A stretch of DNA of 14,206 nt from a virus. Taxonomy: Duplodnaviria > Heunggongvirae > Uroviricota > Caudoviricetes. Under the pieces are notes generated by a model, which was given only the letters and a program-made list of their open reading frames with translations, was not told where the DNA came from and made no database searches. Each line of letters begins with the position of its first letter. Position 1 is the stretch's first letter. Both the position numbers and the translations under genes were made by a program. Where the stretch lies: positions 1 through 14,206 of IMG/VR virus record IMGVR_UViG_2531839665_000025; one strand, given 5' to 3'. Positions 1 through 14,206 of this stretch are shown here, one piece after another.

Positions 1-1284
1 TTACTTCTTCGCCTCTGCAACCACTTTACTACCCACGCCGCGGTTATTGTATTCCCACATGCGGTTGTAGTTAGTGTCATTCAGATTGCGCTGTATTTCG
101 TCGTTATCATCTACGCTGCCGGTATTACCCGCAAACGGACGATTAGAGATCACCGCATCGGCCCACGGTTTAGCCGTGTTAAAACCTTCGTTGATGGCGC
201 TATCACGGATCACCACCTGACCGTTGGTATTGGCATCAACATCCAGCGAGCGGCCCAGTTGCGCCACACCATCACCGAAAGCATTGAAACGGCTGTTTAC
301 GGCGAGGAAACCGTAGTAAATGTTGGACAGCGTAGCCGGTGCAAACACATACGCTTCTTGCTGAGTACGTGAGTTCACCACGCGGAATTCGGTGTTATCG
401 AACACCACTGCGCCGCGACCAGAAACGATATCCACATCCCCTTCAATGTAGCTGTTGGTCACCAGCGTACGCGGCTGACGGTTGGTTTCCAGACGGTTCT
501 GCACACCGCTGTTGGTGACAAAGAAGGTGTTCTGACGACCGAGAATGTTAACGTTGTTAATCTGTACCTGGTCACCATCAGTACGCAGTGCCACCGCCGG
601 ATGGTTACCTGCATCTACGCTATCGCCCAGCGTGTTTTCGATGGTCAGATTTTGCAGTTGCAGGCCATTGTTTTGTGACCAGAAGACCGCAGAGCAGAGA
701 ACACCGATACTGTCGCTGCGTTTGCTCTGGCAGCTATCGTACATATACCACGCTGGTTTACCTGGCATATATTTGCCGCGCGGGTTGACGTCGTGACGCC
801 AGTCGGCAGGGCTCATGCCCCCATCAAGGGAAAGCCCAATCTTCACATCAATCGGTTTTTCACCTGTACCGTACAGAGTAATTCCACCCGGAGCAGCAGG
901 GACATACACCGTTCCCTGATACTCACCAGGCATCACGGCAATATACTGGCGCTTGTTAGTGCGCTTGATAATTGCCGCATCTACCGCCGCCTGAATCGTG
1001 GTATGCGTTACACCTTGAGTACCCGCCGGGCCGACAACAAAGTCAGGTTGCGCAGGCAGGGTAATCGGGGAAGGATTCCACGCTGCAGCACCTGGTGTCA
1101 GGGATGCAAAATAGTGTTGAGCATCGAAATTCTGCGCTTCTTTTGCCGACAGAATCGGGCGAGAAGAGGTACCAGGCGCGGTTTGATCAGAAGGACGTTG
1201 ATCGGGTGGTGTTGAGCTACAGGCGGTCAGCGTCACGCCAAAAGCCAATGCCAGCGCCAGACGGGAAACTGAAAATGTGTTCAC
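1..1284 (-). CDS. ybhC: Host gene ybhC: putative pectinesterase-family outer-membrane lipoprotein, complete, GTG start
   Basis: 427-aa ORF; N-terminus MNTFSVSRLALALAFGVTLTAC has a lipoprotein signal with lipobox-like LTAC; matches remembered E. coli YbhC, the gene flanking attB-lambda on the gal side. Start codon is GTG (plus-strand cac at 1282-1284). Confidence 0.85.
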   Translation of the reverse strand: MNTFSVSRLALALAFGVTLTACSSTPPDQRPSDQTAPGTSSRPILSAKEAQNFDAQHYFASLTPGAAAWNPSPITLPAQPDFVVGPAGTQGVTHTTIQAAVDAAIIKRTNKRQYIAVMPGEYQGTVYVPAAPGGITLYGTGEKPIDVKIGLSLDGGMSPADWRHDVNPRGKYMPGKPAWYMYDSCQSKRSDSIGVLCSAVFWSQNNGLQLQNLTIENTLGDSVDAGNHPAVALRTDGDQVQINNVNILGRQNTFFVTNSGVQNRLETNRQPRTLVTNSYIEGDVDIVSGRGAVVFDNTEFRVVNSRTQQEAYVFAPATLSNIYYGFLAVNSRFNAFGDGVAQLGRSLDVDANTNGQVVIRDSAINEGFNTAKPWADAVISNRPFAGNTGSVDDNDEIQRNLNDTNYNRMWEYNNRGVGSKVVAEAKK

Positions 1285-1330
1285 AGGTTGCTCCGGGCTA
1301 TGAAATAGAAAAATGAATCCGTTGAAGCCT

Positions 1331-1418
1331 GCTTTTTTATACTAAGTTGGCATTATAAAAAAACATTGCTTATCAATTTGTTGCAACGAACAGGTCACTA
1401 TCAGTCAAAATAAAATCA
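1331..1418. other. attL: attL: 15-bp lambda core GCTTTTTTATACTAA (1331-1345) followed by phage P' arm with IHF H' site (about 1371-1390) and Int arm-type sites AGGTCACTAT / CAGTCAAAAT (1392-1411)
   Basis: Exact core sequence seen; left of core reads tgaagcct as in attB, right of core is P'-arm sequence leading directly into the int 3' end. Confidence 0.9.
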
Positions 1419-2489
1419 TTATTTGATTTCAATTTTGTCCCACTCCCTGCCTCTGTCATCACGATACTGTGATGCCATGGTGTCCGACTTATGTCCGAGA
1501 AGATGTTGAGCAAACTTATCGCTTATCTGCTTCTCATAGAGTCTTGCAGACAAACTGCGCAACTCGTGAAAGGTAGGCGGATCCCCTTCGAAGGAAAGAC
1601 CTGATGCTTTTCGTGCGCGCATAAAATACCTTGATACTGTGCCGGATGAAAGCGGTTCACGACGAGTAGATGCAATTATGGTTTCTCCGCCAAGAATCTC
1701 TTTGCATTTATCAAGTGTTTCCTTCATTGATATCCCGAGAGCATCAACATGCAATGTTGTAGGGATGGCAATTTTTACGCCTGTTTTGCTTTGTTCGACA
1801 TAAAGATATCCATCTACGATATCAGACCACTTCATTTCGCATAAATCACCAACTCGCTGCCCGGTAACAACAGCCAGTTCCATTGCAAGTCTGAGCCAAC
1901 ATGGTGATGATTCTGCTGCTTGATAAATTTTCAGGTATTCGTCAGCCGTAAGTCTTGATCTCCTTACCTCTGATTTTGCTGCGCGAGTGGCAGCGACCGG
2001 GTTTGTTGTTATATGGCCTTCAGCTATTGCCTCTCGGAATGCATCGCTCAGTGTTGATCTGATTAACTTGGCTGACGCCGCCTTGCCCTCGTCTATGTAT
2101 CCATTGAGCATTGCCGCAATTTCTTTTGTGGTGATGTCTTCAAGTGGAGCATCAGGCAGCCCCCTCCTTATTGCTTTAATTTTGCTCATGTAATTTATGA
2201 GTGTCTTCTGCTTGATTCCTCTGCTGGCGAGGATTTTTTCGTAGCGATCAAGCCATGAATGTAACGTAACAGAATTATCACTGTTGATTCTCGCTGTCAG
2301 AGGCTTGTGTTTGTGTCCTGAAAATAACTCAATATTGGCCTGTATTGCTTCAGTGATTGCTATCCTCCTGTCTCGGCCTAAACCAAACTCTTTACCCGTC
2401 CTTGGGTCCCTGTAGCAGTAATATCCATTGTTTCTTATATAAAGGTTAGGGGGTAAATCCCGGCGCTCATGACTTCGCCTTCTTCCCAT
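1419..2489 (-). CDS. int: Integrase (tyrosine recombinase), lambda Int
   Basis: 356-aa ORF MGRRRSHERRDLPPNLYIRNNGYYCYRDPRTGKEF...; near-identical to remembered lambda Int; sits next to attL; 5' end overlaps xis. Confidence 0.97.
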   Translation of the reverse strand: MGRRRSHERRDLPPNLYIRNNGYYCYRDPRTGKEFGLGRDRRIAITEAIQANIELFSGHKHKPLTARINSDNSVTLHSWLDRYEKILASRGIKQKTLINYMSKIKAIRRGLPDAPLEDITTKEIAAMLNGYIDEGKAASAKLIRSTLSDAFREAIAEGHITTNPVAATRAAKSEVRRSRLTADEYLKIYQAAESSPCWLRLAMELAVVTGQRVGDLCEMKWSDIVDGYLYVEQSKTGVKIAIPTTLHVDALGISMKETLDKCKEILGGETIIASTRREPLSSGTVSRYFMRARKASGLSFEGDPPTFHELRSLSARLYEKQISDKFAQHLLGHKSDTMASQYRDDRGREWDKIEIK

Positions 2490-2685
2490 TTCTGATCCTC
2501 TTCAAAAGGCTACCTGTTACTGGTCGATTTAAGTCAACCTTTACCGCTGATTCGTGGAACAGATACTCTCTTCCATCCTTAACCGGAGGAGGGAATATCC
2601 TGCATTCGCGCACCCATCGACGAACTGTTTCAAGGCTTCTTGGGCGTCGCTGGCGAGCGTTCCACTCCTGAAGTGTCAAGTACAT
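2467..2685 (-). CDS. xis: Excisionase, lambda Xis (72 aa); internal ATG of the 102-aa track ORF
   Basis: MYLTLQEWNARQRRPRSLETVRRWVRECRIFPPPVKDGREYLFHESAVKVDLNRPVTGSLLKRIRNGKKAKS matches lambda Xis; ATG at 2683-2685; overlaps int start as in lambda. Confidence 0.93.
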   Translation of the reverse strand: MYLTLQEWNARQRRPRSLETVRRWVRECRIFPPPVKDGREYLFHESAVKVDLNRPVTGSLLKRIRNGKKAKS

Positions 2686-2697
2686 CGCAAAGTCTCC

Positions 2698-2711
2698 GCA
2701 ATTACACGCAA
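2698..2711 (-). promoter_or_regulatory. cII-box-like TTGC-N6-TTGC inside xis (position of lambda pI -35 region)
   Basis: Minus strand reads TTGCGTGTAATTGC; same motif and location as remembered lambda pI. Confidence 0.5.
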
Positions 2712-2712
2712 G

Positions 2713-2733
2713 AAAAAGCCGCATTGATGCGGC
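2713..2733 (-). terminator. Putative intrinsic terminator (minus strand): stem GCCGCA-TCAA-TGCGGC followed by T5
   Basis: Perfect 6-bp GC-rich inverted repeat 2718-2733 with A-run 2713-2717 on plus (U-run on minus transcript); lies downstream of the 114-aa gene. Confidence 0.5.
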
Positions 2734-2802
2734 GATGGTAGGTCTGGATATCATTGAGCAATGAACAGGCCTCACCGAGTGTGAGGCGGTGTTATTTCAT
2801 GG

Positions 2803-3147
2803 TTAGTCCTTGCGTAGCTCGCTGATTCTTCTGTAAGTCTCTGGTGCTTTGTTTCCGTGTATCTTCATTTCAGACTTCAACAGAGCAACGAGGGAATCCC
2901 ATTCGTTGAGGATTCCTTTGAATGCCGGAACGCGCTTTGCAACCTTGTTGAATGAATCTCTGATTTCTGGAATCTGCTCAACAAGTGCAACGCATCGTCT
3001 GAAATCGGCTGCGTCATGGGGAGCGCCGAAGTGATGACCATAGATATTCTTTTTCAGTCCACATGCGATTGAGGCAAGAGTTGCGCTACTGATGCCAACA
3101 TCGCCAGTCGATTGCCATTTCAAAACCTTCATAGCCAAATCTGACAT
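2803..3147 (-). CDS. Hypothetical 114-aa protein; cargo (moron) gene between xis and a lambda-like terminator
   Basis: ORF MSDLAMKVLKWQSTGDVGISSATLASIACGLKKNIYGHHFGAPHDAADFRRC...; ATG at 3145-3147 with SD GGAGA about 7 nt upstream; no lambda counterpart recalled; no family recognised. Confidence 0.6.
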   Translation of the reverse strand: MSDLAMKVLKWQSTGDVGISSATLASIACGLKKNIYGHHFGAPHDAADFRRCVALVEQIPEIRDSFNKVAKRVPAFKGILNEWDSLVALLKSEMKIHGNKAPETYRRISELRKD

Positions 3148-3161
3148 TTCTTGTCTCCAAT

Positions 3162-3183
3162 AAAAAAAACCGCCATCAGGCGG
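3162..3183 (-). terminator. Intrinsic terminator (minus strand): GCCGCC-TGAT-GGCGG hairpin plus T8
   Basis: Plus strand aaaaaaaaccgccatcaggcgg; on minus strand a GC stem followed by 8 U. The same element is recalled in lambda between ea8.5 and xis. Confidence 0.7.
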
Positions 3184-3249
3184 CTTGGTGTTCTTTCAGT
3201 TCTTCAATTCGAATATTGGTTACATTGTTTTCATATATGAATAAATAAA

Positions 3250-3429
3250 TTAGCTTTTTTCGTTGCCTTCGCGTTCTTTATTAATTTTGACAAAATCGTT
3301 TTTACCACGCTCTCCAAATGCGTCTTTAGAGTCGTTGTATCCGCAATCGCAGCACACATAATCATCAGACCATCCACGCATTGTTTTTTCTTTTGCAATA
3401 TTTCCAGAACCGCATTTTGGACAAGACAT
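3250..3429 (-). CDS. Small zinc-ribbon protein (59 aa) with CPKC...CCDC motif
   Basis: MSCPKCGSGNIAKEKTMRGWSDDYVCCDCGYNDSKDAFGERGKNDFVKINKEREGNEKS; internal ATG at 3427-3429 preceded by SD GGAGGT; the track ORF 3250..3462 begins at a TTG with no SD. Confidence 0.55.
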   Translation of the reverse strand: MSCPKCGSGNIAKEKTMRGWSDDYVCCDCGYNDSKDAFGERGKNDFVKINKEREGNEKS

Positions 3430-3525
3430 ATCACTACCTCCAAAGCATGAGAGAGATGACAACGTAACATTGATTGGAGATTAACAATAGATTGCTGATG
3501 TAAAAGATATGTATAAGCTTAGCTA

Positions 3526-4314
3526 TCAAAGAGGAGGTTCTGGTAGTTGCATCCAGTCGGTTACATTGCGACTCTGTGTTTCGAAAAATTCATCACCATT
3601 GCGGACAATATCGAAAAACTCTCCGTCTCGATATTGCGCATAAAGAACGAATGCGCCATCACATAAAATAATTACGTGCTGACCATCATCTGGCATTAGC
3701 TCACTACAGCTTATCCAACCATCCGGAGTTACCGGAAGCGAGAACGGCAGCACATCTCTGTGAACAAGTTTTTGCTGTGACAGGTTATCCAGAACTTTCT
3801 GTACTGCTGCATCACCGAATACACCAAGCGCATCTGCCATAACTCCTACAACCTGATAAGCCTCAGCGCATACCGTGGATAAACCATCCGGAATTACCGG
3901 AGAGTTGCCGGGTTCTTTAATGTGCAAGCGAGGCTCACCATCTTTTGGTTCAGGCCACTGGCGCTCCATGTTGATCTTCAATTTATCTTCCATAGCAGCG
4001 GTAATTTCAGCATCGCTGATGCCAGCACGGCGCTGTGCATCCCACAACAGGAAATGCATATCAGCCCACTCGCTGAGATCGTCTGGTTCGGCTGCGGCTT
4101 CCAGAGCCTCTTTTGAGAGGTGTTTCAGTGGACCAATGGGGCCAACGCAGCCAAATGTGGAGTCAGACCATTTGGCATGCTCGTGGCGAATCAGTTCGCG
4201 TTCCAGTGATGCCAGTGCAATTCGTGCCAGTTCCATTTGTTCGCCACGAGTAAGCCCGTTTTCAAGCGGATTTTTAATGAACAATTCAATACGTTCTTTG
4301 GTAATAGTGGTCAT
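3526..4314 (-). CDS. Two-domain phage protein: N-terminal MazG-like nucleotide pyrophosphohydrolase-like domain (DUF550-like) and C-terminal DUF551-like domain
   Basis: 262 aa; N-terminal region carries paired acidic helices (EALEAAAE ... EWAD) reminiscent of MazG-type NTP-PPases; C-terminus DGWISCSELMPDD...TDWMQLPEPPL resembles the remembered DUF551 signature; SD AAGGA before ATG at 4312-4314. Confidence 0.5.
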   Translation of the reverse strand: MTTITKERIELFIKNPLENGLTRGEQMELARIALASLERELIRHEHAKWSDSTFGCVGPIGPLKHLSKEALEAAAEPDDLSEWADMHFLLWDAQRRAGISDAEITAAMEDKLKINMERQWPEPKDGEPRLHIKEPGNSPVIPDGLSTVCAEAYQVVGVMADALGVFGDAAVQKVLDNLSQQKLVHRDVLPFSLPVTPDGWISCSELMPDDGQHVIILCDGAFVLYAQYRDGEFFDIVRNGDEFFETQSRNVTDWMQLPEPPL

Positions 4315-4324
4315 TTGTTAGTCC

Positions 4325-5080
4325 TTAAAGTGCTAGTTGCAATTGCATTTCAAAGCGGTCGCGTTGTTCACAATACGCAAGAGAACCAGGGCTATTGTGT
4401 GCCTCAATCCGTTCTACCATTAATGCTGCGCGTGTCTCTTTACTTGCAGGTGCATAAGCCCCAGACCAGGCTTTATCAATACCGATGTTTCGAGCGACGT
4501 TCGTACTATCTGCGCTGGCTAAGGGTAATTTTGTGAATATCAGCGGATTTAACATGCGCAATCCATGTAGTTTCGTAACCGGCTGACCATGCCCATCAAC
4601 AATGTGACGAATCAGGTCTTTCATTCTGGCTACCGCAAGAGTTGGGCGCTTTACGTCATAGTCGCCACAACTACCGATAGCCACTCGCGGAAACTCATTG
4701 CACAAATGAATAAATCGCTCGTCACTTTCATTCATGTGCCACACTGGAACGCCAGCTAGTTTTCCGTGAGGCCACTCATTCAGAAGCGCATCATTTTCCT
4801 CCTCTCCGCCATCAATAACATCCGGGATAATGGCAAAATCGAATCCTGGGTGATTCTTCCAGCGAGCAACAAACTCGTAGTAATCGCTCCAGTCGATTTT
4901 GTTTTTGCCAGCTGCTTTCCAGGCGGTGAATGCACCGTTGTCCAGCGCGAACGACTGACAGTATTCAGCCGCGAGATTGATCTGGCCTGAATGCGCAAAA
5001 CTGATAAACGCATGTCGCCCTTTCCATGCTCTCATTGCGCACGTATCAGGAGTAATAGGCCCACCGTGGTAGTGAATCAT
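4325..5080 (-). CDS. TGT-fold (tRNA-guanine transglycosylase / DpdA-like) protein, 251 aa, lacking the C-terminal zinc subdomain
   Basis: Motif order parallels bacterial Tgt: HGGPITP (cf. VVETPCFMPVGT), FALDNGAFTAW (cf. LTDSGGFQVF), FDFAIIPDVI (cf. DIVMIFDEC), RVAIGSCGD (cf. YAVGGLAVGE), ADSTNVARNIG (cf. FDCVMPTRNARNG). Start taken at ATG 5078-5080 with SD AAGGAGA; the track's longer start at 5122 has no SD. Confidence 0.5.
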   Translation of the reverse strand: MIHYHGGPITPDTCAMRAWKGRHAFISFAHSGQINLAAEYCQSFALDNGAFTAWKAAGKNKIDWSDYYEFVARWKNHPGFDFAIIPDVIDGGEEENDALLNEWPHGKLAGVPVWHMNESDERFIHLCNEFPRVAIGSCGDYDVKRPTLAVARMKDLIRHIVDGHGQPVTKLHGLRMLNPLIFTKLPLASADSTNVARNIGIDKAWSGAYAPASKETRAALMVERIEAHNSPGSLAYCEQRDRFEMQLQLAL

Positions 5081-5081
5081 C

Positions 5082-5489
5082 TCACTCTCCTTTGATGCGA
5101 ATGCCAGTAGCGCGGATTGCATCGATGACTTCAGAAACTTTGTATGCCATTACCGTTTGGTAATCATCGTGAAAATCTGTTCGATGAAGCATGCTGCTAC
5201 GTTCCGGGAGCAGTATTTCCCGCGCTTCCAGTTCTGCAATGCGCTTTTTTGCTGCTTCCAGTTCATCCAGTAATTCCAGCACGGTAGCCGGATTAGCCTT
5301 GGCAACAAAATCCCGGACTGGCTTACAATCAATCTCCGCAATGGGTTGATACGATGTGTAGCCATGCTGTCTTGTATAACTACCGTGACGAATAACGAAA
5401 AAATCACCATTTATTTTTTTAGCCTGCCACTTATCTTCACCGGCTTTCTCTGCCGCTTCACGCAGTGCCTGAGAGTTAATTTCGCTCAC
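5082..5489 (-). CDS. ea22: Ea22-like protein (135 aa), GTG start overlapping upstream stop
   Basis: N-terminus MSEINSQALREAAE and C-terminus GIRIKGE match remembered lambda Ea22 ends; central part differs. Confidence 0.7.
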   Translation of the reverse strand: MSEINSQALREAAEKAGEDKWQAKKINGDFFVIRHGSYTRQHGYTSYQPIAEIDCKPVRDFVAKANPATVLELLDELEAAKKRIAELEAREILLPERSSMLHRTDFHDDYQTVMAYKVSEVIDAIRATGIRIKGE

Positions 5490-5707
5490 TTCGAACCTCT
5501 CTGTTTACTGATAAGCTCCAGATCCTCCTGGCAACTTGCACAAGTCCGACAACCCTGAACGACCAGGCGTCTTCGTTCATCTATGGGATCGCCACACTCA
5601 CAACAATGAGTGGCGGATATAGTCTGGTAGTTCAGACGACGCATTTTTATTGCTGTATTGCGCTGTAATTCTTCAATTTCTGATGCTGAATCAATGATGT
5701 CCGCCAT
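5486..5707 (-). CDS. TraR/DksA-type C4 zinc-finger protein (73 aa)
   Basis: MADIIDSASEIEELQRNTAIKMRRLNYQTISATHCCECGDPIDERRRLVVQGCRTCASCQEDLELISKQRGSK; CxxC-N17-CxxC; near-identical ORF recalled in lambda. Confidence 0.8.
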   Translation of the reverse strand: MADIIDSASEIEELQRNTAIKMRRLNYQTISATHCCECGDPIDERRRLVVQGCRTCASCQEDLELISKQRGSK

Positions 5708-5756
5708 CTTTCATTAATCCCTGAATTGTTGGTTAATACGCTTGAGGGTAAATGCG

Positions 5757-5783
5757 AATAATAAAAAAGGAGCCTGTAGCTCC
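5757..5783 (-). terminator. Putative intrinsic terminator (minus strand): GGAGC-TACAG-GCTCC plus U-rich tail
   Basis: Plus strand aataataaaaaaggagcctgtagctcc; hairpin then T6ATTATT on the minus transcript. Confidence 0.5.
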
Positions 5784-5805
5784 CTGATGATTTTGCTTTT
5801 CATGT

Positions 5806-6087
5806 TCACCGTTCCTTAAAGACGCCGTTTAACATGCCGATCGCCAGGCTTAAATGAGTCGGTGTGAATCCCATCAGCGTTACCGTTTCGCGGTGCTTCT
5901 TCAGTACGCTACGGCAAATGTCATCGACGTTTTTATCCGGAAACTGCTGTCTGGCTTTTTTGATTTCAGAATTAGCCTGACGGGCAATGCTGCGAAGGGC
6001 GTTTTCTTGCTGAGGTGTCACTGAACAAGCCCCATGTCGGCAAGCATAAGCACACAGAATATGAAGCCCGCTGCCAGAAAAATGCAT
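5806..6087 (-). CDS. Lambda orf61-family small protein (93-aa form)
   Basis: MHFSGSGLHILCAYACRHG...ALRSIARQANSEIKK matches remembered lambda orf61 residues 11 onward; reading frame differs from lambda after a T6/A6 homopolymer (see findings); start uncertain (ATG 6085-6087, or GTG 6019-6021). Confidence 0.6.
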   Translation of the reverse strand: MHFSGSGLHILCAYACRHGACSVTPQQENALRSIARQANSEIKKARQQFPDKNVDDICRSVLKKHRETVTLMGFTPTHLSLAIGMLNGVFKER

Positions 6088-6097
6088 TCAGTGGTTG

Positions 6098-6289
6098 TCA
6101 TACCTGGTCTCTCTCATCTGCTTCTGCTTTCGCCACCATCATTTCCAGCTTTTGTGAAAGGGATGTGGCTAACGTATGAAATTCTTCGTCTGTTTCTACT
6201 GGTATTGGCACAAACCTGACTCCAATTTGAGCAAGGCTATGTGCCATCTCAATGCTCGTTCTTAACTCAACAGGAGATGCTTTGTGCAT
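6098..6289 (-). CDS. Lambda orf63-like small protein (63 aa)
   Basis: 63-aa ORF; 28-nt overlap with next gene, identical to the lambda orf63/orf60a arrangement. Confidence 0.65.
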   Translation of the reverse strand: MHKASPVELRTSIEMAHSLAQIGVRFVPIPVETDEEFHTLATSLSQKLEMMVAKAEADERDQV

Positions 6290-6444
6290 ACAGCCCCTCG
6301 TTTATTATTTATCTCCTCAGCCAGCCGCTGGGCTTTCAGTGGATTTTGGATAACAGAAAGGTCGGGAAATACCCAGCCTCGCTTTGTAACGGAGTAGACG
6401 AAAGTGATCGCACCTACCCGGATATTATCGTGAGGATGCTTCAT
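6262..6444 (-). CDS. Lambda orf60a-like small protein (60 aa from second ATG)
   Basis: [60 protein letters not shown]; ATG at 6442-6444 overlaps the lambda-frame exo stop as ATGA. Confidence 0.65.
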
Positions 6445-7120
6445 CGCCATTGCTCCCCAAATACAAAACCAATTTCAGCCAGTGCCTCGTCCATTTTTCG
6501 ATGAACTCCGGCACCATCTCGTCAAAACCCGCCATGTACTTTTCATCCCGCTCAACCACGACATAATGCAGTCCTTCACGCTTCATACGCGGGTCATAGT
6601 TGGCAAAGTACCAGGCATCTTTTCGCGTCACCCACATGCTGTACTGCACCTGGGCCATGTAAGCTGACTTTATGGCCTCGAAACCACCGAGCCGGAACTT
6701 CATGAAATCCCGGGAGGTAAACGGGCATTTCAGTTCAAGGCCGTTGCCGTCACTGCATAAACCATCTGGAGAGCAGGCGGTACGCATACTTTCGTCGCGA
6801 TAGATGATCGGTGATTCAGTAACATTCACGCCGGAAGTGAACTCAAACAGGGCTCTGGCGTCGTTCTCGTACTGTTTTCCCCAGGCCAGCGCTTTAGCGT
6901 TAACTTCCGGAGCCACACCGGTGCAAACCTCAGCAAGCAGGGTGTGGAAGTAGGACATTTTCATGTCAGGCCACTCTTTTCCGGAGCGGGGTTTTGCTAT
7001 TACGTTATGAACTTCTGAAGCTGTGATGACGCCGAGCCGTAATTTGTGCCACGCATCATCCCCCTGTTCGACAGCTCTCACGTCGATCCCGGTACGCTGC
7101 AGGATAATGTCCGGTGTCAT
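6425..7120 (-). CDS. exo: Lambda exonuclease (Red-alpha) with frameshifted C-terminus
   Basis: [43 protein letters not shown]... matches lambda Exo up to ...VPEFIEK, then reads [22 protein letters not shown] instead of [17 protein letters not shown]; the lambda-frame stop would be at 6441-6443. Confidence 0.85.
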
Positions 7121-7902
7121 GCTGCCACCTTCTGCTCAGTGGCTTTCTGTTTCAGGAATCCAAGAGCTTTCACTGCTTCGGCCTGTGTCAGTTCTGACGA
7201 TGCGCGAATGTCGCGGCGAAATATCTGGGAACAGAGCGGCAATAAGTCGTCATCCCATGTTTTATCCAGGGCGATTAGCAGAGTGTTAATCTCCTGCATG
7301 GTTTCATCGTTAACCGGAGTGATGTCGCGTTCCGGCTGGCGTTCTGCAGTGTATGCAGTATTTTCGACAATGCGCTCGGCTTCATCCTTGTCATAGATAC
7401 CAGCAAATCCGAAGGCCAGACGGGCACACTGAATCATAGCTTTATGCCGTAACATCCGTTTAGGATGCGACTGCCACGGCCCCGTGATTTCTCTGCCTTC
7501 GCGGGTTTTGAATGGTTCGCGGCGGCATTCATCCATCCATTCGGTAACGCAGATCGGATGATTACGGTCCTTGCGGTAAATCCGGCATGTACAGGATTCA
7601 TTGTCCTGCTCAAAGTCCATGCCATCAAACTGCTGGTTTTCATTGATGATGCGGGACCAGCCATCAACGCCCACCACCGGAACGATGCCGTTCTGCTTAT
7701 CAGGGAAGGCGTAAATTTCTTTCGTCCACGGATTAAGGCCGTACTGGTTGGCGACGATCAACAATGCGATGAACTGCGCATCGCTGGCATCGCCTTTAAA
7801 TGCCGTCTGGCGAAGAGTGGTGATCAGTTCCTGTGGGTCGACAGAATCCATGCCGACACGTTCAGCCAGCTTCCCTGCCAGCGTTGCGAGTGCTGTACTC
7901 AT
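7117..7902 (-). CDS. bet: Recombination protein Bet (Red-beta), single-strand annealing protein
   Basis: 261 aa [59 protein letters not shown]...; ATGA overlap with exo. Confidence 0.97.
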
Positions 7903-7907
7903 CCGTT

Positions 7908-8324
7908 TTATACCTCTGAATCAATATCAACCTGATGGTGAGCAATGGTTTCAACCATGTACCGGATGTGTTCTGCCATGCGCTCCTGAAACTCAACATC
8001 GTCATCAAACGCACGGGTAATGGCTTTTTTGCTGGCCCCGTGGCGTTGCAAATGACCGATGCATAGCGATTCAAACAGGTGCTGGGGCAGGCCTTTTTCC
8101 ATGTCGTCTGCCAGTTCTGCCTCTTTCTCTTCACGGGCTATCTGCTGGTAGTGACGCGCCCAGCTCTGAGCCTCAAGACGATCCTGAATGTAATAAGCGT
8201 TCATGGCCGAACTCCTGAAATAGCTGTGAAAATATCGCCCGCGAAATGCCGGGCTGATTAGGAAAACAGGAAAGGGGGTTAGTGAATGCTTTTGCTTGAT
8301 CTCAGTTTCAGTATTAATATCCAT
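7908..8324 (-). CDS. gam: Gam, RecBCD inhibitor
   Basis: 138 aa [88 protein letters not shown]... matches lambda Gam. Confidence 0.96.
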
Positions 8325-8422
8325 TTTTTATAAGCGTCGACGGCCTCACGAAACATCTTTTCATCGCCAATAAAAGTGGCGATAGTGAATTTAGTCTGGA
8401 TAGCCATAATTGTTTGATCCAT
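8279..8422 (-). CDS. kil: Kil (host cell-division/FtsZ inhibitor), 47 aa
   Basis: [47 protein letters not shown]; internal ATG 8420-8422 of the 89-aa track ORF; 46-nt overlap with gam and 32-nt overlap with cIII as in lambda. Confidence 0.9.
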
Positions 8423-8555
8423 TTTTTGGGACTCCTGGCTGATTAAGTATGTCGATAAGGCGTTTCCATCCGTCACGTAATTTACGGGTGATTCGTTCAA
8501 GTAAAGATTCGGAAGGGCAGCCAGCAACAGGCCACCCTGCAATGGCATATTGCAT
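8391..8555 (-). CDS. cIII: CIII, FtsH/HflB inhibitor that stabilises CII, 54 aa
   Basis: Translated by hand from the minus strand: [54 protein letters not shown]; not in the ORF track as a separate ORF (different frame from kil). Confidence 0.88.
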   Translation of the reverse strand: MQYAIAGWPVAGCPSESLLERITRKLRDGWKRLIDILNQPGVPKNGSNNYGYPD

Positions 8556-8627
8556 GGTGTGCTCCTTATTTATACATAACGAAAAACGCCTCGAGTGAAG
8601 CGTAATTGGTATGCGGTAACGCCGCGC

Positions 8628-8996
8628 TCAGGCGGCCTTGATAGTCATATCATCTGAATCAAATATTCCTGATGTATCGATATCGGTAATTCTTATTCCT
8701 TCACTACCATCCATTGGAGGCCATCCTTCCTGACCATTTCCATCATTCCAGTCGAACTCACACACAACACCATATGCATTTAAGTCGCTTGAAATTGCTA
8801 TAAGCAGAGCATGTTGCGCCAGCATGATTAATACAGCATTTAATACAGAGCCGTGTTTATTGAGTCGGTATTCAGAGTCTGACCAGAAATTATTAATCTG
8901 GTGAAGTTTTTCCTCTGTCATTACGTCATGGTCGATTTCAATTTCTATTGATGCTTTCCAGTCGTAATCAATGATGTATTTTTTGATGTTTGACAT
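8628..8996 (-). CDS. ea10: Ea10 protein (122 aa)
   Basis: MSNIKKYIIDYDWKASIEIEIDHDVMTEEKLHQINNFWSDSEYRLNKHGSVLNAVLIMLAQHALLIAISSDLNAYGVVCEFDWNDGNGQEGWPPMDGSEGIRITDIDTSGIFDSDDMTIKAA matches lambda Ea10; SD GAGGA upstream. Confidence 0.93.
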   Translation of the reverse strand: MSNIKKYIIDYDWKASIEIEIDHDVMTEEKLHQINNFWSDSEYRLNKHGSVLNAVLIMLAQHALLIAISSDLNAYGVVCEFDWNDGNGQEGWPPMDGSEGIRITDIDTSGIFDSDDMTIKAA

Positions 8997-9014
8997 CTGT
9001 TCATATCCTCACAG

Positions 9015-9042
9015 ATAAAAAATCGCCCTCATCTTGGAGGGC
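9015..9042 (-). terminator. Putative intrinsic terminator (minus strand): GCCCTC-CAAGAT-GAGGGC plus T6
   Basis: Inverted repeat 9025-9030 / 9037-9042 with A-run 9017-9022 on plus; lies just upstream of the ea10 SD; a near-identical element is recalled in lambda. Confidence 0.5.
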
Positions 9043-9159
9043 AAAGAAGATTTCCAATAATCAGAACAAGTCGGCTCCTGTTTAGTTACGAGCGACATTG
9101 CTCCGTGTATTCACTCGTTGGAATGAATACACAGCGCTGTGTTTATTCTGTTGTTTGCG

Positions 9160-9184
9160 TGAAAATGAAATCCGCCTGAGCGGG
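9160..9184 (-). terminator. Possible terminator hairpin (CCCGC-TCAG-GCGG) with U-rich tail just 3' of the 293-aa gene
   Basis: Minus strand reads CCCGCTCAGGCGGATTTCATTTTCACGC; tail is only moderately U-rich. Confidence 0.35.
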
Positions 9185-10066
9185 TTATGACCACTTTTTG
9201 TTTGGGTTTCGTTGGTGAGCGTGGTTTACAGGATTATTTGATATACCCCATAACTCTGACTCGCTTATCTCTACACGAGAGAAAGACCTGCTTTCTTTCA
9301 GTTCTTTTATAAACCTAGAACCTAAGATGACATCTATTGTACCAGAAAGTTCTTGTAAAAGATCTATGTTTTTTCTGAGGAAGAAAATATCTTCTTTATA
9401 TTTAATTTTTACATAGAATTTATTCTGTATTTTTAATATATCAAAGCATGGCAGATATCTATATCCCTCATATTTTCGCCACTGCTTAACAATTATAACA
9501 TCTTTTTCATTTACTGCATTAATCAGCCCAAGACCAAGTACAGGTATGAATATTCTATTGTCTGCCGAAAGCGTACAATTATCACCACCAGGCAAATATG
9601 TATAAATCATGTCGGAATTTTTATACGCATCAACGAATGCACGTAAGAAGCGTACATATTTTTGCCATCCGTTTATACCGAATTTACCATATAAGTATTC
9701 TTTATTTGTTAGAAGAAAACTATTTGTATCAGGATCCTTATCTACAGACCTGTCGATAAGATCTCCAACTACGTTTACAAAGTCAAAGACAGAGTTTAAT
9801 AAGAACAATTGTCTTTCAGTAGGGCGAATTTCAATTATGTAGCCAGGATGAAGACGATATTGCATCTGCTTACGAAGTATACCGAACGCTTGGGTCCGAG
9901 CATCTGAAAGCAACTTCTTGTCGCCATCGCCGTGAGCATTGTTTCTAATAAAACTGATATAATTTGCTAATTTTTCAGCCTCTTTTTTGTGTTTTTTTCG
10001 CTCTGATGCTGAGTCTATTGGTTTTGGTATGGACTTGTAATCAATCTTCTTCATTACGTACCTCAT
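9185..10066 (-). CDS. Hypothetical 293-aa cytoplasmic protein encoded in an AT-rich cargo block between N and ea10
   Basis: Long ORF MRYVMKKIDYKSIPKPIDSASERKKHKKEAEKLANYISFIRNNAHGDGDKK...; no hydrophobic segments; visibly lower GC than the flanks; start ATG 10064-10066 overlaps the N stop (ATGA), alternative ATG 10052-10054 has SD GAGGT; no family recognised. Confidence 0.65.
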   Translation of the reverse strand: MRYVMKKIDYKSIPKPIDSASERKKHKKEAEKLANYISFIRNNAHGDGDKKLLSDARTQAFGILRKQMQYRLHPGYIIEIRPTERQLFLLNSVFDFVNVVGDLIDRSVDKDPDTNSFLLTNKEYLYGKFGINGWQKYVRFLRAFVDAYKNSDMIYTYLPGGDNCTLSADNRIFIPVLGLGLINAVNEKDVIIVKQWRKYEGYRYLPCFDILKIQNKFYVKIKYKEDIFFLRKNIDLLQELSGTIDVILGSRFIKELKESRSFSRVEISESELWGISNNPVNHAHQRNPNKKWS

Positions 10067-10386
10067 GCCAATGGAATGGATTCCCCTTTAACCTTTTGTC
10101 TTCCTTGACAAGTTATACCGAACTCACCTGGCTTGCTATACCAAACTCGATGATTCTTGCGCTCAATACGTTGCAGGTTGCTTTCAATCTGTTCGTGGTA
10201 TTCAGCCAGCACCGTAAGGTCTATCGGATTCAGTGCGCTTTCTACTCGTGATTTCGGTTTGCGATTCAGCGAGAGAATAGGGCGGTTAACTGGTTTAGCG
10301 CTTACCCCAACCAACAGGGGATTTGCTGCTTTCCATTGAGCCTGTTTCTCTGCGCGACGTTCGCGGCGGCGTGTTTGTGCATCCAT
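10063..10386 (-). CDS. N: Antiterminator N (107 aa)
   Basis: MDAQTRRRERRAEKQAQWKAANPLLVGVSAKPVNRPILSLNRKPKSRVESALNPIDLTVLAEYHEQIESNLQRIERKNHRVWYSKPGEFGITCQGRQKVKGESIPLA, with an arginine-rich N-terminal RNA-binding motif; internal ATG 10384-10386 with SD AGGAGA; the 151-aa track ORF is an upstream extension. Confidence 0.9.
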   Translation of the reverse strand: MDAQTRRRERRAEKQAQWKAANPLLVGVSAKPVNRPILSLNRKPKSRVESALNPIDLTVLAEYHEQIESNLQRIERKNHRVWYSKPGEFGITCQGRQKVKGESIPLA

Positions 10387-10543
10387 CTGGATTCTCCTGT
10401 CAGTTAGCTTTGGTTGTGTGTGGTAGTCGTAGTCCTGAACGAAAACACCCCGCAATGGCACATTGGCAGCTAATCCGGATTCGCACTTCCGGCCAATGCT
10501 TCGTTTCGTATCACACACACCAAAGCCTTCTGCTTTGAATGCT

Positions 10544-10574
10544 GCCCTTCTTCAGGGCTTAATTTTTAAGAGCC
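10544..10574 (-). promoter_or_regulatory. nutL: nutL: boxB GCCCTGAAGAAGGGC (10544-10558) and boxA-like GGCTCTTA (10567-10574)
   Basis: boxB is an exact lambda nutL boxB on the minus strand; boxA differs at its first base from the remembered lambda CGCTCTTA. Confidence 0.8.
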
Positions 10575-10619
10575 TCACCTTCAATGGTGGTCAGTGCGTC
10601 CTGCTGATGGCTTAAAATT

Positions 10620-10687
10620 ACAAGGAAGATTGTATGTTGTAAACAAGAAATATTGTAAAAAGGGGCGTGAAAAACAAACTCCATTGT
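10620..10687 (-). promoter_or_regulatory. 434-type left operator/promoter OL-pL: three 14-bp ACAA-N6-TTGT operators
   Basis: ACAAGGAAGATTGT (10620-10633), ACAAGAAATATTGT (10643-10656), ACAAACTCCATTGT (10674-10687) upstream (in minus-strand sense) of nutL and N. Confidence 0.8.
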
Positions 10688-10737
10688 TTTTAAACGGAAA
10701 ATAGTTTGTTTTTTTGTTATCGAGATTGAGGTGGGGA

Positions 10738-12090
<1,353 letters not shown>

Positions 12091-12098
12091 GACATTCC

Positions 12099-12130
12099 CG
12101 CTCTTACACATCCCAGCCCTGAAAAAGGGC
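12099..12130 (+). promoter_or_regulatory. nutR: nutR: boxA CGCTCTTA (12099-12106) and boxB GCCCTGAAAAAGGGC (12116-12130)
   Basis: Exact lambda nutR boxA and boxB immediately after the cro stop. Confidence 0.88.
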
Positions 12131-12140
12131 ATCAAAATAA

Positions 12141-12176
12141 ACCACACCTATGGTGTATGCATTTATTTGCATACAT
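12141..12176 (+). terminator. tR1 region (Rho-dependent terminator / cII leader), lambda-like
   Basis: Sequence accacacctatggtgtatgcatttatttgcataca matches the remembered lambda tR1 region between nutR and cII. Confidence 0.5.
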
Positions 12177-12209
12177 TCAATCAATTGTTATCTAAGGAAA
12201 TACTTACAT

Positions 12210-12503
12210 ATGGTTCGTGCAAACAAACGCAACGAGGCTCTACGAATCGAGAGTGCGTTGCTTAACAAAATCGCAATGCTTGGAACTGAGAAGACAGCGG
12301 AAGCTGTGGGAGTTGATAAGTCGCAGATCAGCAGGTGGAAGAGGGATTGGATTCCAAAGTTCTCAATGCTGCTTGCTGTTCTTGAATGGGGTGTCGTCGA
12401 CGACGACATGGCTCGATTGGCACGACAAGTTGCTTCGATTCTCACCAATAAAAAACGCCCGGCGGCAACCGAGCGTTCTGAACAAATCCAGATGGAATTC
12501 TGA
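12210..12503 (+). CDS. cII: CII transcriptional activator (97 aa)
   Basis: MVRANKRNEALRIESALLNKIAMLGTEKTAEAVGVDKSQISRWKRDWIPKFSMLLAVLEWGVVDDDMARLARQVASILTNKKRPAATERSEQIQMEF; internal ATG of the 117-aa track ORF. Confidence 0.95.
   Translation: MVRANKRNEALRIESALLNKIAMLGTEKTAEAVGVDKSQISRWKRDWIPKFSMLLAVLEWGVVDDDMARLARQVASILTNKKRPAATERSEQIQMEF
12219..12232 (-). promoter_or_regulatory. pRE cII-binding box TTGC-N6-TTGC (minus strand) within the cII 5' end
   Basis: Minus strand TTGCGTTTGTTTGC; same position as lambda pRE -35. Confidence 0.6.
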
Positions 12504-12525
12504 GGTTATTACTGGAACTATCAAC
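12447..12525 (-). ncRNA. oop: oop antisense RNA (about 77-79 nt) overlapping the cII 3' end, with intrinsic terminator
   Basis: Minus strand ends ...CGGUUGCCGCCGGGCGUUUUUUAUU (terminator at 12447-12475); sequence matches remembered lambda oop with a few substitutions. Confidence 0.75.
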
Positions 12526-12535
12526 AGGAGTCATT

Positions 12536-13375
12536 ATGACAAATACAGCAAAAATACTCAACTTCGGCAGAGGTAACTTTGCCGGACAGGAGCGTAATGT
12601 GGCAGATCTCGATGATGGTTACGCCAGACTATCAAATATGCTGCTTGAGGCTTATTCAGGCGCAGATCTGACCAAGCGACAGTTTAAAGTGCTGCTTGCC
12701 ATTCTGCGTAAAACCTATGGGTGGAATAAACCAATGGACAGAATCACCGATTCTCAACTTAGCGAGATTACAAAGTTACCTGTCAAACGGTGCAATGAAG
12801 CCAAGTTAGAACTCGTCAGAATGAATATTATCAAGCAACAATGCGGCATGTTTGGACCAAATAAAAACATCTCAGAATGGTGTATCCCTCAAAACGAGGG
12901 AAAATCCCCTAAAACGAGGGATAAAACATCCCTCAAATTGGGGGATTGCTATCCCTCAACACAGGGGAACACAAAAGACACTAATACAAAAGAAAATAGA
13001 AAAGATTATTCGTCAGAGAATTCTGGCGAATCCTCTGACCAGCCAGAAAACGACCTTTCTGTGGTGAAACCTGATGCTGCAATTCAGAGCGGCAGCAAAT
13101 GGGGGACAGCAGAAGACCTGACCGCCGCAGAGTGGATGTTTGACATGGTGAAGACTATCGCGCCATCAGCCAGAAAACCGAATTTTGCAGGGTGGGCTAA
13201 CGATATCCGCCTGATGCGTGAACGTGACGGACGTAACCACCGCGATATGTGTGTGCTGTTCCGCTGGGCCTGCCAGGACAACTTCTGGTCCGGTAATGTG
13301 CTGAGCCCGGCCAAACTCCGCGACAAGTGGACCCAGCTCGAAATCAACCGTAACCATCGCCGCACAGATGGTTAA
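12536..13375 (+). CDS. O: Replication initiator O (279 aa; C-terminus shorter than and different from lambda O)
   Basis: MTNTAKILNFGRGNFAGQERNVADLDDGYARLSNMLLEAYSGADLTKRQFKVLLAILRKTYGWNKPMDRITDSQLSEITKL... matches lambda O up to ...KWTQLEINRN, then ends HRRTDG. Confidence 0.9.
   Translation: MTNTAKILNFGRGNFAGQERNVADLDDGYARLSNMLLEAYSGADLTKRQFKVLLAILRKTYGWNKPMDRITDSQLSEITKLPVKRCNEAKLELVRMNIIKQQCGMFGPNKNISEWCIPQNEGKSPKTRDKTSLKLGDCYPSTQGNTKDTNTKENRKDYSSENSGESSDQPENDLSVVKPDAAIQSGSKWGTAEDLTAAEWMFDMVKTIAPSARKPNFAGWANDIRLMRERDGRNHRDMCVLFRWACQDNFWSGNVLSPAKLRDKWTQLEINRNHRRTDG
12884..13010. promoter_or_regulatory. ori-lambda: four O-binding iterons (ATCCCTCAAAACGAGGGA type) plus adjacent AT-rich region inside O
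   Basis: Iterons at about 12884-12903, 12904-12923, 12926-12947, 12950-12972, followed by an A/T-rich stretch acaaaagacactaatacaaaagaaaatagaaaagattatt. Confidence 0.85.
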
Positions 13376-14048
13376 CTTTGACCGTGAGCAGATGCGTCGG
13401 ATCGCCAACAACATGCCGGAACAGTACGACGAAAAGCCTCAGGTACAGCAGGTAGCGCAGATCATCAACGGTGTGTTCAGCCAGTTACTGGCAACTTTCC
13501 CGGCGAGCCTGGCTAACCGTGACCAGAACGAACTGAACGAAATCCGCCGCCAGTGGGTTCTGGCTTTCCGGGAAAACGGGATCACCACAATGGAACAGGT
13601 TAACGCAGGAATGCGCGTAGCCCGTCGGCAGAATCGACCATTTCTGCCATCACCCGGGCAGTTTGTTGCATGGTGCCGGGAAGAAGCATCCGTTATCGCC
13701 GGACTGCCAAACGTCAGCGAGCTGGTTGATATGGTTTACGAGTATTGCCGGAAGCGAGGCCTGTATCCGGATGCGGAGTCTTATCCGTGGAAATCAAACG
13801 CGCACTACTGGCTGGTTACCAACCTGTATCAGAACATGCGGGCCAATGCGCTTACTGATGCGGAATTACGCCGTAAGGCCGCAGATGAGCTTGTCCATAT
13901 GACTGCGAGAATTAACCGTGGTGAGGCGATCCCTGAACCAGTAAAACAACTTCCTGTCATGGGCGGTAGACCTCTAAATCGTGCACAGGCTCTGGCGAAG
14001 ATCGCAGAACTCAAAGCTAAGTTCGGACTGAAAGGAGCAAGTGTATGA
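13368..14048 (+). CDS. P: Replication protein P (helicase loader), 226 aa; lacks the first 7 residues of lambda P
   Basis: MVNFDREQMRRIANNMPEQYDEKPQVQQVAQIINGVFSQLLATFPASLANRDQNELNEIRRQWVLAFRENG... matches lambda P from residue 8; start overlaps the O 3' end; no obvious SD. Confidence 0.88.
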   Translation: MVNFDREQMRRIANNMPEQYDEKPQVQQVAQIINGVFSQLLATFPASLANRDQNELNEIRRQWVLAFRENGITTMEQVNAGMRVARRQNRPFLPSPGQFVAWCREEASVIAGLPNVSELVDMVYEYCRKRGLYPDAESYPWKSNAHYWLVTNLYQNMRANALTDAELRRKAADELVHMTARINRGEAIPEPVKQLPVMGGRPLNRAQALAKIAELKAKFGLKGASV

Positions 14049-14206
14049 CGGGCAAAGAGGCAATTATTCATTACCTGGGGACGCATAATAGCTTCTGTGC
14101 GCCGGACGTTGCCGCGCTAACAGGCGCAACAGTAACCAGCATAAATCAGGCCGCGGCTAAAATGGCACGGGCAGGTCTTCTGGTTATCGAAGGTAAGGTC
14201 TGGCGA
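14045..14206 (+). CDS. ren: Ren (Rex-exclusion protection), 5' partial of gene, runs off window end
   Basis: Hand-translated MTGKEAIIHYLGTHNSFCAPDVAALTGATVTSINQAAAKMARAGLLVIEGKVWR (54 codons, no stop in window); ATG 14045-14047 overlaps P stop (ATGA). Confidence 0.85.
   Translation, partial: MTGKEAIIHYLGTHNSFCAPDVAALTGATVTSINQAAAKMARAGLLVIEGKVWR

Follow-up and report, generated by a model that had tools for sequence, protein, structure and literature searches.

Transglycosylases of the DpdA family that stand in phage genomes apart from any 7-deazaguanine synthesis genes were catalogued by Hutinet et al. (2019; PMC6884629), who grouped 182 viruses and placed 76 phages in a third, 'DpdA only' group. 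The gamma-proteobacterial singleton cluster in that survey includes the DpdAs of BTP1, SfI, HK106, SEN1, SPN3UB and 7-11 (PMC6884629), and the MED16 paper assigns these proteins to a cluster named 'DpdA/TGT_1'. Modification status, in the words of the 2019 authors, 'is difficult to predict'; they also noted a possible functional divergence of the cluster (PMC6884629). Here we describe a gene, hereafter called dpdA, for a protein of 251 residues encoded on the minus strand of a 14,206-nucleotide stretch of DNA (positions 1 to 14,206 of the IMG/VR virus record IMGVR_UViG_2531839665_000025), the whole of which is referred to as the window. The protein is very probably a DpdA-family member of the tRNA-guanine transglycosylase (TGT) superfamily. 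By analogy with the tested relatives, we consider it probable that it is a minimal singleton phage DpdA which modifies DNA with a 7-deazaguanine supplied by the host.

The chemistry to be expected is that of the bacterial DpdA, in which Asp95 serves as general acid/base and Asp256 as nucleophile, with Phe99 stacking on the base and Asp130 reading it; guanine exchange by this enzyme was abolished upon mutation of either catalytic Asp (PMC10164549). Phage enzymes have been shown to work alone in E. coli. The lone DpdA of 9g produced 790 dPreQ0 per 10^6 nucleotides in plasmid DNA, the lone DpdA2 of nt-1 produced 926-1,607 dPreQ0 per 10^6 nucleotides and none in a ΔqueD strain, and the lone DpdA2 of VH7D produced 2,765 dPreQ1 per 10^6 nucleotides (PMC6884629, PMC10516641). 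Among singleton phages, dADG was found at 50 per 10^6 nucleotides in the DNA of phage 7-11 and at 354 per 10^6 nucleotides in that of MED16, which together correspond to 0.02-0.13% of G.

Homology searches linked the 251-residue protein to phage DpdAs with an experimentally supported role in the 7-deazaguanine modification of DNA. PHROG 887, 'queuine tRNA-ribosyltransferase', was matched at an E-value of 5e-104, and tblastn gave the following identities to individual phage proteins:

BTP1: 92.8% identity, E = 9e-161
SfI: 67.6% identity, E = 9e-112
HK106: 35.9% identity, E = 7e-32
Salmonella phage 7-11: 35.9% identity, E = 2e-24
Pantoea phage MED16: 38% identity, E = 1e-34
Pseudomonas phage iggy (DpdA): 25.9% identity, E = 1e-5

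The family profile matched the iggy DpdA with a probability of 96.9% (E = 2e-10), and hhalign with a more diverse family alignment gave 98.7% (E = 2.3e-16) over 151 columns. This profile alignment pairs LDNGAF with LDSGAF and ADST with CDSS, such that the columns of D47 and D191 fall on the LDSGAF and CDSS motifs of the iggy enzyme. The AF2 model of the protein (pLDDT 85, pTM 0.85) is a TIM barrel of the (β/α)8 type, and the structures that it resembles most are those of TGT, DpdA or Cap10. Among the BFVD structure matches at E ≤ 1e-3, all of the functionally named ones were phage queuine or queuosine tRNA-ribosyltransferases, the remainder being uncharacterised or unnamed. The family is large, with more than 7,855 homologues that form 1,565 clusters at 50% identity.

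The length of 251 residues is taken as correct because the family consensus starts at MIHYHGG, the ATG comes one base after the TGA that closes the upstream ea22-like gene and an AAAGGAG lies ahead of it; the alternative reading of 265 residues from position 5122 would overlap the ea22-like gene. Along the protein, the motifs HGGPITP, LDNGAF, DFAIIPD, VAIGSCGD and DSTNVARNIG start at residues 5, 46, 81, 133 and 191, respectively. Alignment of 65 family sequences down to 32% identity showed that D47, H172, D191 and S192 are invariant and that N48, A50, D87, G91, H115, G136, G173 and L174 are nearly so. Both of the Asp residues that define the TGT superfamily were found, namely an acid/base that lies in a D-x-G-x-F motif and, after β8, a nucleophile. 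The predicted catalytic residues are hence D47 (in LDNGAF) and D191 (in ADSTN). The spacing of D47 and F51 (D-x3-F) is that of D95 and F99 in the bacterial DpdA; D87 closes a β-strand, as the base-reading Asp of TGT does, and D191 comes after the last strand. Motif order and spacing, read together with the literature, suggest that D47, F51 and D191 are the equivalents of DpdA D95, F99 and D256.

The five cysteines of the protein are at positions 14, 41, 127, 138 and 237, and only C237 lies past D191. The CxCxxC motif, which E. coli TGT carries at residue 302, is absent, and the Zn subdomain is thus judged to be missing because there is neither a CxCxxC nor more than one cysteine after D191. 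The motif was likewise absent in the phage DpdAs examined (iggy, 7-11, MED16, HK106 and BTP1). Comparison with the BTP1 allele, to which the amino-acid identity is 93%, gave a pN of 0.04 and a pS of 0.70 (synonymous sites being saturated), for a dN/dS of about 0.02; the protein is under strong purifying selection. Its isoelectric point (pI) is 6.3, compared with 7.7-9.0 for the 7-11 and MED16 proteins, and as an indicator of substrate the pI does not discriminate.

An earlier note, made from the letters of this DNA, had described three genes at 3250-5080, one of them for a TGT/DpdA-like protein lacking the Zn subdomain. The coordinates, the lengths and all five motifs in their order were confirmed, and the PHROG 887 and iggy DpdA matches agree with the identification of the protein. 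Its proposal that a lone transglycosylase could suffice on E. coli precursors is borne out by the 9g, nt-1 and VH7D enzymes. Where the note took the missing Zn site as a signature of action on DNA, it went too far: the only solved DpdA, which is bacterial, keeps its Zn (PMC10164549), and the protein-directed Cap10 lacks it. The similarity to the TGT/DpdA fold on which the note staked its reading was recovered through the DpdA-family profile and the BFVD structures; a link to TGT through PF01702 or through Foldseek against the PDB was not.

As judged from gene content, the gene belongs to the 'DpdA only' (singleton) class, in that no 7-deazaguanine synthesis genes accompany it. The phage Stx1a_EH2115, which carries an identical three-gene region (window 3150-5200), was used as a complete genome for this purpose. 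When the iggy proteins served as tblastn queries, QueC, QueD and FolE yielded nothing better than an E-value of 0.5 in either the 36.9-kb Stx1a_EH2115 or the window; QueE was not searched. We also surveyed the neighbourhoods of 80 related dpdA loci from IMG/VR, 21 of them with a dpdA at least 98% identical (close loci) and 59 more divergent, and no que or folE gene was among the frequent neighbours. Neither the ParB-like ATPase DpdB nor DpdC was present nearby.

By homology, D191 would attack C1' of the target deoxyguanosine in double-stranded phage DNA, displacing guanine and leaving an intermediate in which enzyme and DNA are joined covalently, with D47 as the general acid/base. The intermediate would be resolved by a free 7-deazaguanine base drawn from the queuosine pathway of the host, either preQ0 or preQ1, or possibly the amide ADG. 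Judging by the tested relatives, the expected outcome would be a sparse and probably sequence-specific replacement, at about 0.01-0.3% of G, and not a bulk one. Least certain is the payoff, for which anti-restriction, imitation of a mark of the host and other roles may be considered. Restriction evasion, which had been put forward for this locus, is doubtful because the tested relatives contain just 0.02-0.13% dADG and the DNA of MED16 is still cut by the enzymes reported as tested.

Several observations weigh against a DNA-modifying singleton DpdA: (i) MED16 DNA was cut by the enzymes reported as tested at G-containing sites, and the authors of that work described the inhibitory effect of dADG as minimal; (ii) the closest tested member of the subfamily is only 38% identical, and the activity of the singleton cluster is known from phage DNA, not from isolated enzyme; (iii) the dADG of 7-11 and MED16 requires an additional nitrile-hydration step; (iv) the DNA of mycobacteriophage Orion, which carries a DpdA of a different singleton cluster, is unmodified, but neither Orion nor its host makes preQ0; (v) HMM searches of Pfam (including PF01702), NCBIfam, PADLOC and the PDB gave no direct link to TGT; and (vi) Foldseek against the PDB yielded generic TIM barrels only (pyruvate kinase and TrpA, with a TM of about 0.47). 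As to the fifth point, even at E ≤ 1 neither the 251-residue protein nor any of the 65 family sequences matched PF01702 or another Pfam model. Searches of PDB sequences by phmmer and by two family profiles returned noise alone (a designed repeat protein, GCN4 and similar), and when hhalign compared the family profiles with the single sequence of E. coli TGT, the probabilities were 1.4% or less. The validated iggy DpdA, used as a control, was likewise unmatched by Pfam, by phmmer against the PDB and by PADLOC. The negatives from Pfam, the PDB and PADLOC are therefore uninformative, since a validated enzyme is equally invisible to these searches.

The window holds a lambdoid prophage that abuts the chromosomal gene ybhC (1-1284). 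The features surrounding dpdA are as follows:

1419-2489, minus strand: int, with xis beside it, also on the minus strand
2803-3147, minus strand: gene of PHROG 1229
3186-3167, minus strand: terminator-like hairpin (8 pairs) with a T-run behind it, lying just downstream of the Eag gene
3250-3429, minus strand: zinc-ribbon (Eag) gene, 59 residues
3526-4314, minus strand: DUF550-DUF551 EaA-like gene, 262 residues
4325-5080, minus strand: dpdA-like gene, 251 residues
5093-5087, minus strand: Shine-Dalgarno-like AAAGGAG, visible in the sequence itself 6 nucleotides upstream of the dpdA ATG
5082-5489, minus strand: Ead/Ea22-like gene, 135 residues (PF13935, E = 2.6e-17)

Upstream of the ea22-like gene are a DksA/TraR-like gene, exo, bet, gam, kil and N, followed by cI, cro, cII, O and P. 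The ea22-like gene anchors the position of dpdA within the early-left 'ea' region. The ATG of dpdA (5080) starts one base past the TGA of the ea22-like gene (stop codon at 5084-5082), which itself sits between the AAAGGAG and the ATG, so the two genes are translationally close-packed. No sigma-70-like promoter was found on the minus strand between 2400 and 6200, and the putative terminator at 3167-3186 marks the end of the gene block on the leftward transcript. The early-left operon would accordingly be ordered N ... gam-bet-exo ... ea22-dpdA-eaA-eag-terminator-xis-int, and dpdA would be transcribed from pL after induction. Because the gene lies in the early-left operon and has no promoter-like site of its own, its product is expected only upon induction or infection, as the phage DNA replicates.

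What else such a protein could be doing was weighed against the same body of evidence. It is unlikely that the TGT fold has been re-purposed here, or that no meaningful DNA modification takes place in E. coli. Under re-purposing, the protein might counter type IV CBASS (Cap9/Cap10) or QatABCD by binding or reversing protein deazaguanylation, might sequester preQ0 or preQ1, or might excise bases as a plain glycosylase. The modification levels of singleton phages are too low for convincing DNA protection, and a functional divergence of the singleton cluster was raised as a question by the 2019 authors themselves; both points speak for such a change. Nevertheless, both catalytic Asp residues and the Phe that comes four residues past the first of them (D47/F51) are conserved as in DpdA, and dADG was actually detected in the DNA of two singleton phages. 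PADLOC, moreover, finds no defence-system match for the protein, although the validated iggy DpdA has none either.

A more specific proposal is that the singleton DpdAs of temperate enterobacterial phages do not provide bulk anti-restriction. They might instead write sparse, sequence-specific dADG-like marks, at about the level of the bacterial DpdA, that mimic the 'self' mark of Dpd restriction-modification islands in the host or serve as a phage epigenetic signal, or they might act in a Cap10-like manner on deazaguanylated proteins against type IV CBASS or QatABCD. We regard this proposal as rather improbable. Even when 'self'-mark mimicry, a Cap10-like protein-directed or counter-defence role and the absence of any real DNA role are taken jointly, they make up an unlikely account of the gene.

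We consider it very unlikely that the protein is an RNA-acting phage TGT that alters the queuosine, preQ1 or preQ0 status of tRNAs and thereby biases lytic translation. The sequence itself cannot separate a DNA from an RNA substrate, the fold and the catalytic residues are common to TGT, and relatives are annotated 'queuine tRNA-ribosyltransferase'. However, the Zn subdomain, which stabilises the binding of nucleic acid by QTRT1, is absent, and the sequence relatives are the DpdAs of phages with modified DNA (iggy, 7-11 and MED16). In addition, E. coli has a TGT of its own, and the activity of phage DpdA is independent of host tgt.

The two genes downstream of dpdA had been grouped with it in the earlier note as a candidate DNA-modification module, and a MazG-like and a DUF551-like part had been noticed in the 262-residue protein. 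Both domains were found: residues 42-137 match PF04447 (141.5 bits, the gathering score being 23; E = 1e-41), the MazG-like former DUF550, now named dATP/dGTP pyrophosphohydrolase, and residues 199-261 match DUF551 (PF04448; E = 2.9e-17), with WISCSELMPDD at residue 200 and DWMQLPEPPL at residue 253. The EaA-like protein is thus built from an N-terminal module of about 45 residues, DUF550, a linker and DUF551. DUF550 activity on dGTP and dATP is known from Z-genome phages, by way of an Acinetobacter phage protein (PMC12884076), and by analogy it is credible that the domain here is a dGTP/dATP pyrophosphohydrolase. The zinc-ribbon protein has 59 residues when read from the ATG at 3429, which lies behind a GGAGG, or 70 residues from a TTG at 3462. 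It shows a CxxC...CxxC pattern, resembles P22 EaG, matches PHROG 2945 (E = 5e-31) and bears the RefSeq name 'Eag protein'; the Pfam search gave sub-threshold zinc-ribbon matches only. Lar, the restriction-alleviation family PF14354, was among these (22.4 bits, below its gathering score of 28.6; E = 1.5e-4), as was the HVO_2753 zinc-finger family, and the resemblance to Lar may be generic zinc-ribbon similarity.

The neighbourhood survey bears directly on whether the three genes belong together. Domain-resolved BLAST placed a DUF550 domain directly after dpdA in about 9 of the 21 close loci and in about 2 of the 59 divergent ones (L029 and L032), and the zinc-ribbon gene was present in 5 of the 80. 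The first 45 or so residues of the downstream gene, together with the 10-nucleotide spacer, are conserved in the 21 close loci; those without DUF550 carry other domains in its place, with or without DUF551. Across all of the loci that lack DUF550, the downstream gene retains just the N-terminal module of about 45 residues or is unrelated. The EaA-like gene (loci L004-L034) appears as a domain-shuffling hotspot, in which the module is joined to DUF550 plus DUF551, to DUF551 alone or to unrelated domains. A recombination boundary lies inside the EaA-like coding sequence, since dpdA stays 98-100% identical while the domains downstream vary. Two earlier passes over these loci were set aside: a first tblastn had indicated strong linkage of dpdA and DUF550, in 17 of the 21 close loci, which was an artefact of a query that contained the shared module of about 45 residues, and single-linkage clustering of neighbours was uninformative, having merged the ea22-like and EaA-like proteins into one cluster.

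Named relatives give a similar picture. In BTP1, an eaA gene with DUF550 adjoins dpdA across the same 10-nucleotide spacer; SfI and HK106 have neither the DUF550 nor the zinc-ribbon gene. Many relatives keep dpdA in the replication/nin region instead, where its neighbours, on our own and not profile-based reading of the sequences, resemble O/P, NinB and RusA genes. Some or all of the 2,051-bp three-gene region (window 3150-5200, including the end of the ea22-like gene) occurs in 3,444 of 5,426 complete E. coli genomes, compared with 303 for dpdA, and adjacency is therefore expected from shared location. The complete three-gene arrangement was limited to 5 genomes and a single Stx1a phage. Both the DUF550-DUF551 gene and the zinc-ribbon gene are mosaic 'ea' genes that are independent of dpdA and not its functional partners.

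A co-functioning module, for example one with DUF550 adjusting the dGTP pool or with the zinc ribbon as a targeting factor, is therefore extremely improbable. In its favour are the contiguity, common orientation and tight spacing of the three genes, the repetition of the dpdA-DUF550 order in BTP1, the action of DUF550 on dGTP and dATP in phages with Z genomes and the weak Lar-like match of the zinc ribbon. Against it, the partners co-occur with dpdA in only a minority of the loci counted above, many relatives keep dpdA in another region, adjacency is predicted by location and the chemistry of DpdA, a post-replicative base exchange, requires no change in the dNTP pool.

Some further observations concern the remainder of the prophage. 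The left arm of the window, from about 1391 to 8636, matches the Stx1a-converting phage Stx1a_EH2115 (LC744180) with 95% identity overall, and the part from 3150 to 5200 is identical. Parts of the O/P region also match this phage, whereas the part from about 9140 to 12440, which comprises a Nun-like open reading frame (ORF), N, cI, cro and cII, does not; this makes the prophage a mosaic whose immunity region is a different one. The Nun-like ORF, of 293 residues (9185-10066, minus strand), is located between a DUF2528 gene and N in the part of the window that is lowest in GC content (0.32-0.36). It has no Pfam or PADLOC match and belongs to PHROG 12139 (function unknown; E = 8e-206), and its last 20 residues (...NPVNHAHQRNPNKKWS) resemble the C-terminus of PHROG 5632, a family of 'Nun-like transcription termination factor' proteins (E = 7e-5). 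The ORF might encode an exclusion protein of the Nun type to which a large N-terminal domain is added. A second ORF, of 158 residues (10738-11214, minus strand), overlaps the end of cI at the position of lambda rexAB; its N-terminus is hydrophobic and signal- or lipoprotein-like, and it matches PHROG 2651 (function unknown) and no Pfam or PADLOC model.

The 303 complete E. coli genomes with dpdA, which they carry in a lambdoid prophage, amount to about 1 in 18, and RefSeq labels the product 'hypothetical protein'; no model in Pfam or NCBIfam covers the gene. Two allele classes were seen in prophages of E. coli, one in about 203 genomes with at least 95% identity to the window and an SfI-type one in about 99 genomes with 60-80% identity. 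The SfI-type allele adjoins a DUF1317 gene, and five dpdA matches were on plasmids. An annotation correction for the 303 genomes follows from this work, as does the placement of the two neighbouring genes outside the system. It also matters that the identical three-gene region is carried by an Stx1a-converting phage. The 'DpdA-only' phages have been an acknowledged question since 2019 with respect to the base that is inserted, its level and its purpose. A lambdoid prophage of E. coli is the most tractable setting for addressing it, given inducible lysogens, que and tgt knockouts and recombineering.

With regard to known systems, the central idea that a guanine-exchange gene resides in this prophage is right yet already published: the earlier note had regarded such a gene in a temperate lambdoid phage as a novelty, and BTP1, SfI and HK106 were in the 'DpdA only' list of 2019. 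The gene is an E. coli allele of a catalogued class and not a new kind of system. Our literature searches found no experimental work on the DpdA of lambdoid, Stx or P22-like phages.

The closest counterparts, the DpdAs of BTP1 (SIU02687 / YP_009639228), SfI (YP_009147480) and HK106 (YP_007151699), share with the present protein a length of 250-266 residues, a temperate lambdoid or P22-like phage as carrier, a position in the early region and the lack of que genes; the gene described here differs in being the E. coli allele, in a prophage next to ybhC. The 7-11 and MED16 proteins belong to the same sequence cluster, conserve the catalytic columns and are dependent on the host, with no preQ0 genes of their own, but come from virulent phages and are more basic. 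The DpdA1 enzymes of 9g, CAjan and iggy (Queuovirinae and related phages) have a homologous catalytic core, the same base-exchange chemistry and likewise no CxCxxC. Unlike the present gene, which stands alone, they are located beside folE-queD-queE-queC and replace 16-32% of G, and the protein studied here is about 60 residues shorter across both ends and about 26% identical to them.

More distant are the cellular enzymes. The bacterial DpdA of Salmonella Montevideo (PDB 7UI4), which belongs to the Dpd restriction-modification system, has 413 residues, carries the large insertion Ins8 together with a structural Zn site and depends on the ATPase DpdB, whereas the present protein has 251 residues and no insertion; neither a PADLOC match to the bacterial DpdA nor a PDB profile match to 7UI4 was obtained. 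Compared with TGT (PF01702), it is shorter (251 versus 375 residues), with neither the Zn subdomain nor the additional elements that bind tRNA. Cap10 of type IV CBASS (PDB 9NTN) is the best structural match of the singleton DpdAs and is 10% identical to the present protein. It works with the QueC-like Cap9 and a CD-NTase in a bacterial defence operon, where it binds the N-terminus of a protein, whereas the gene described here is a lone early gene of a phage.

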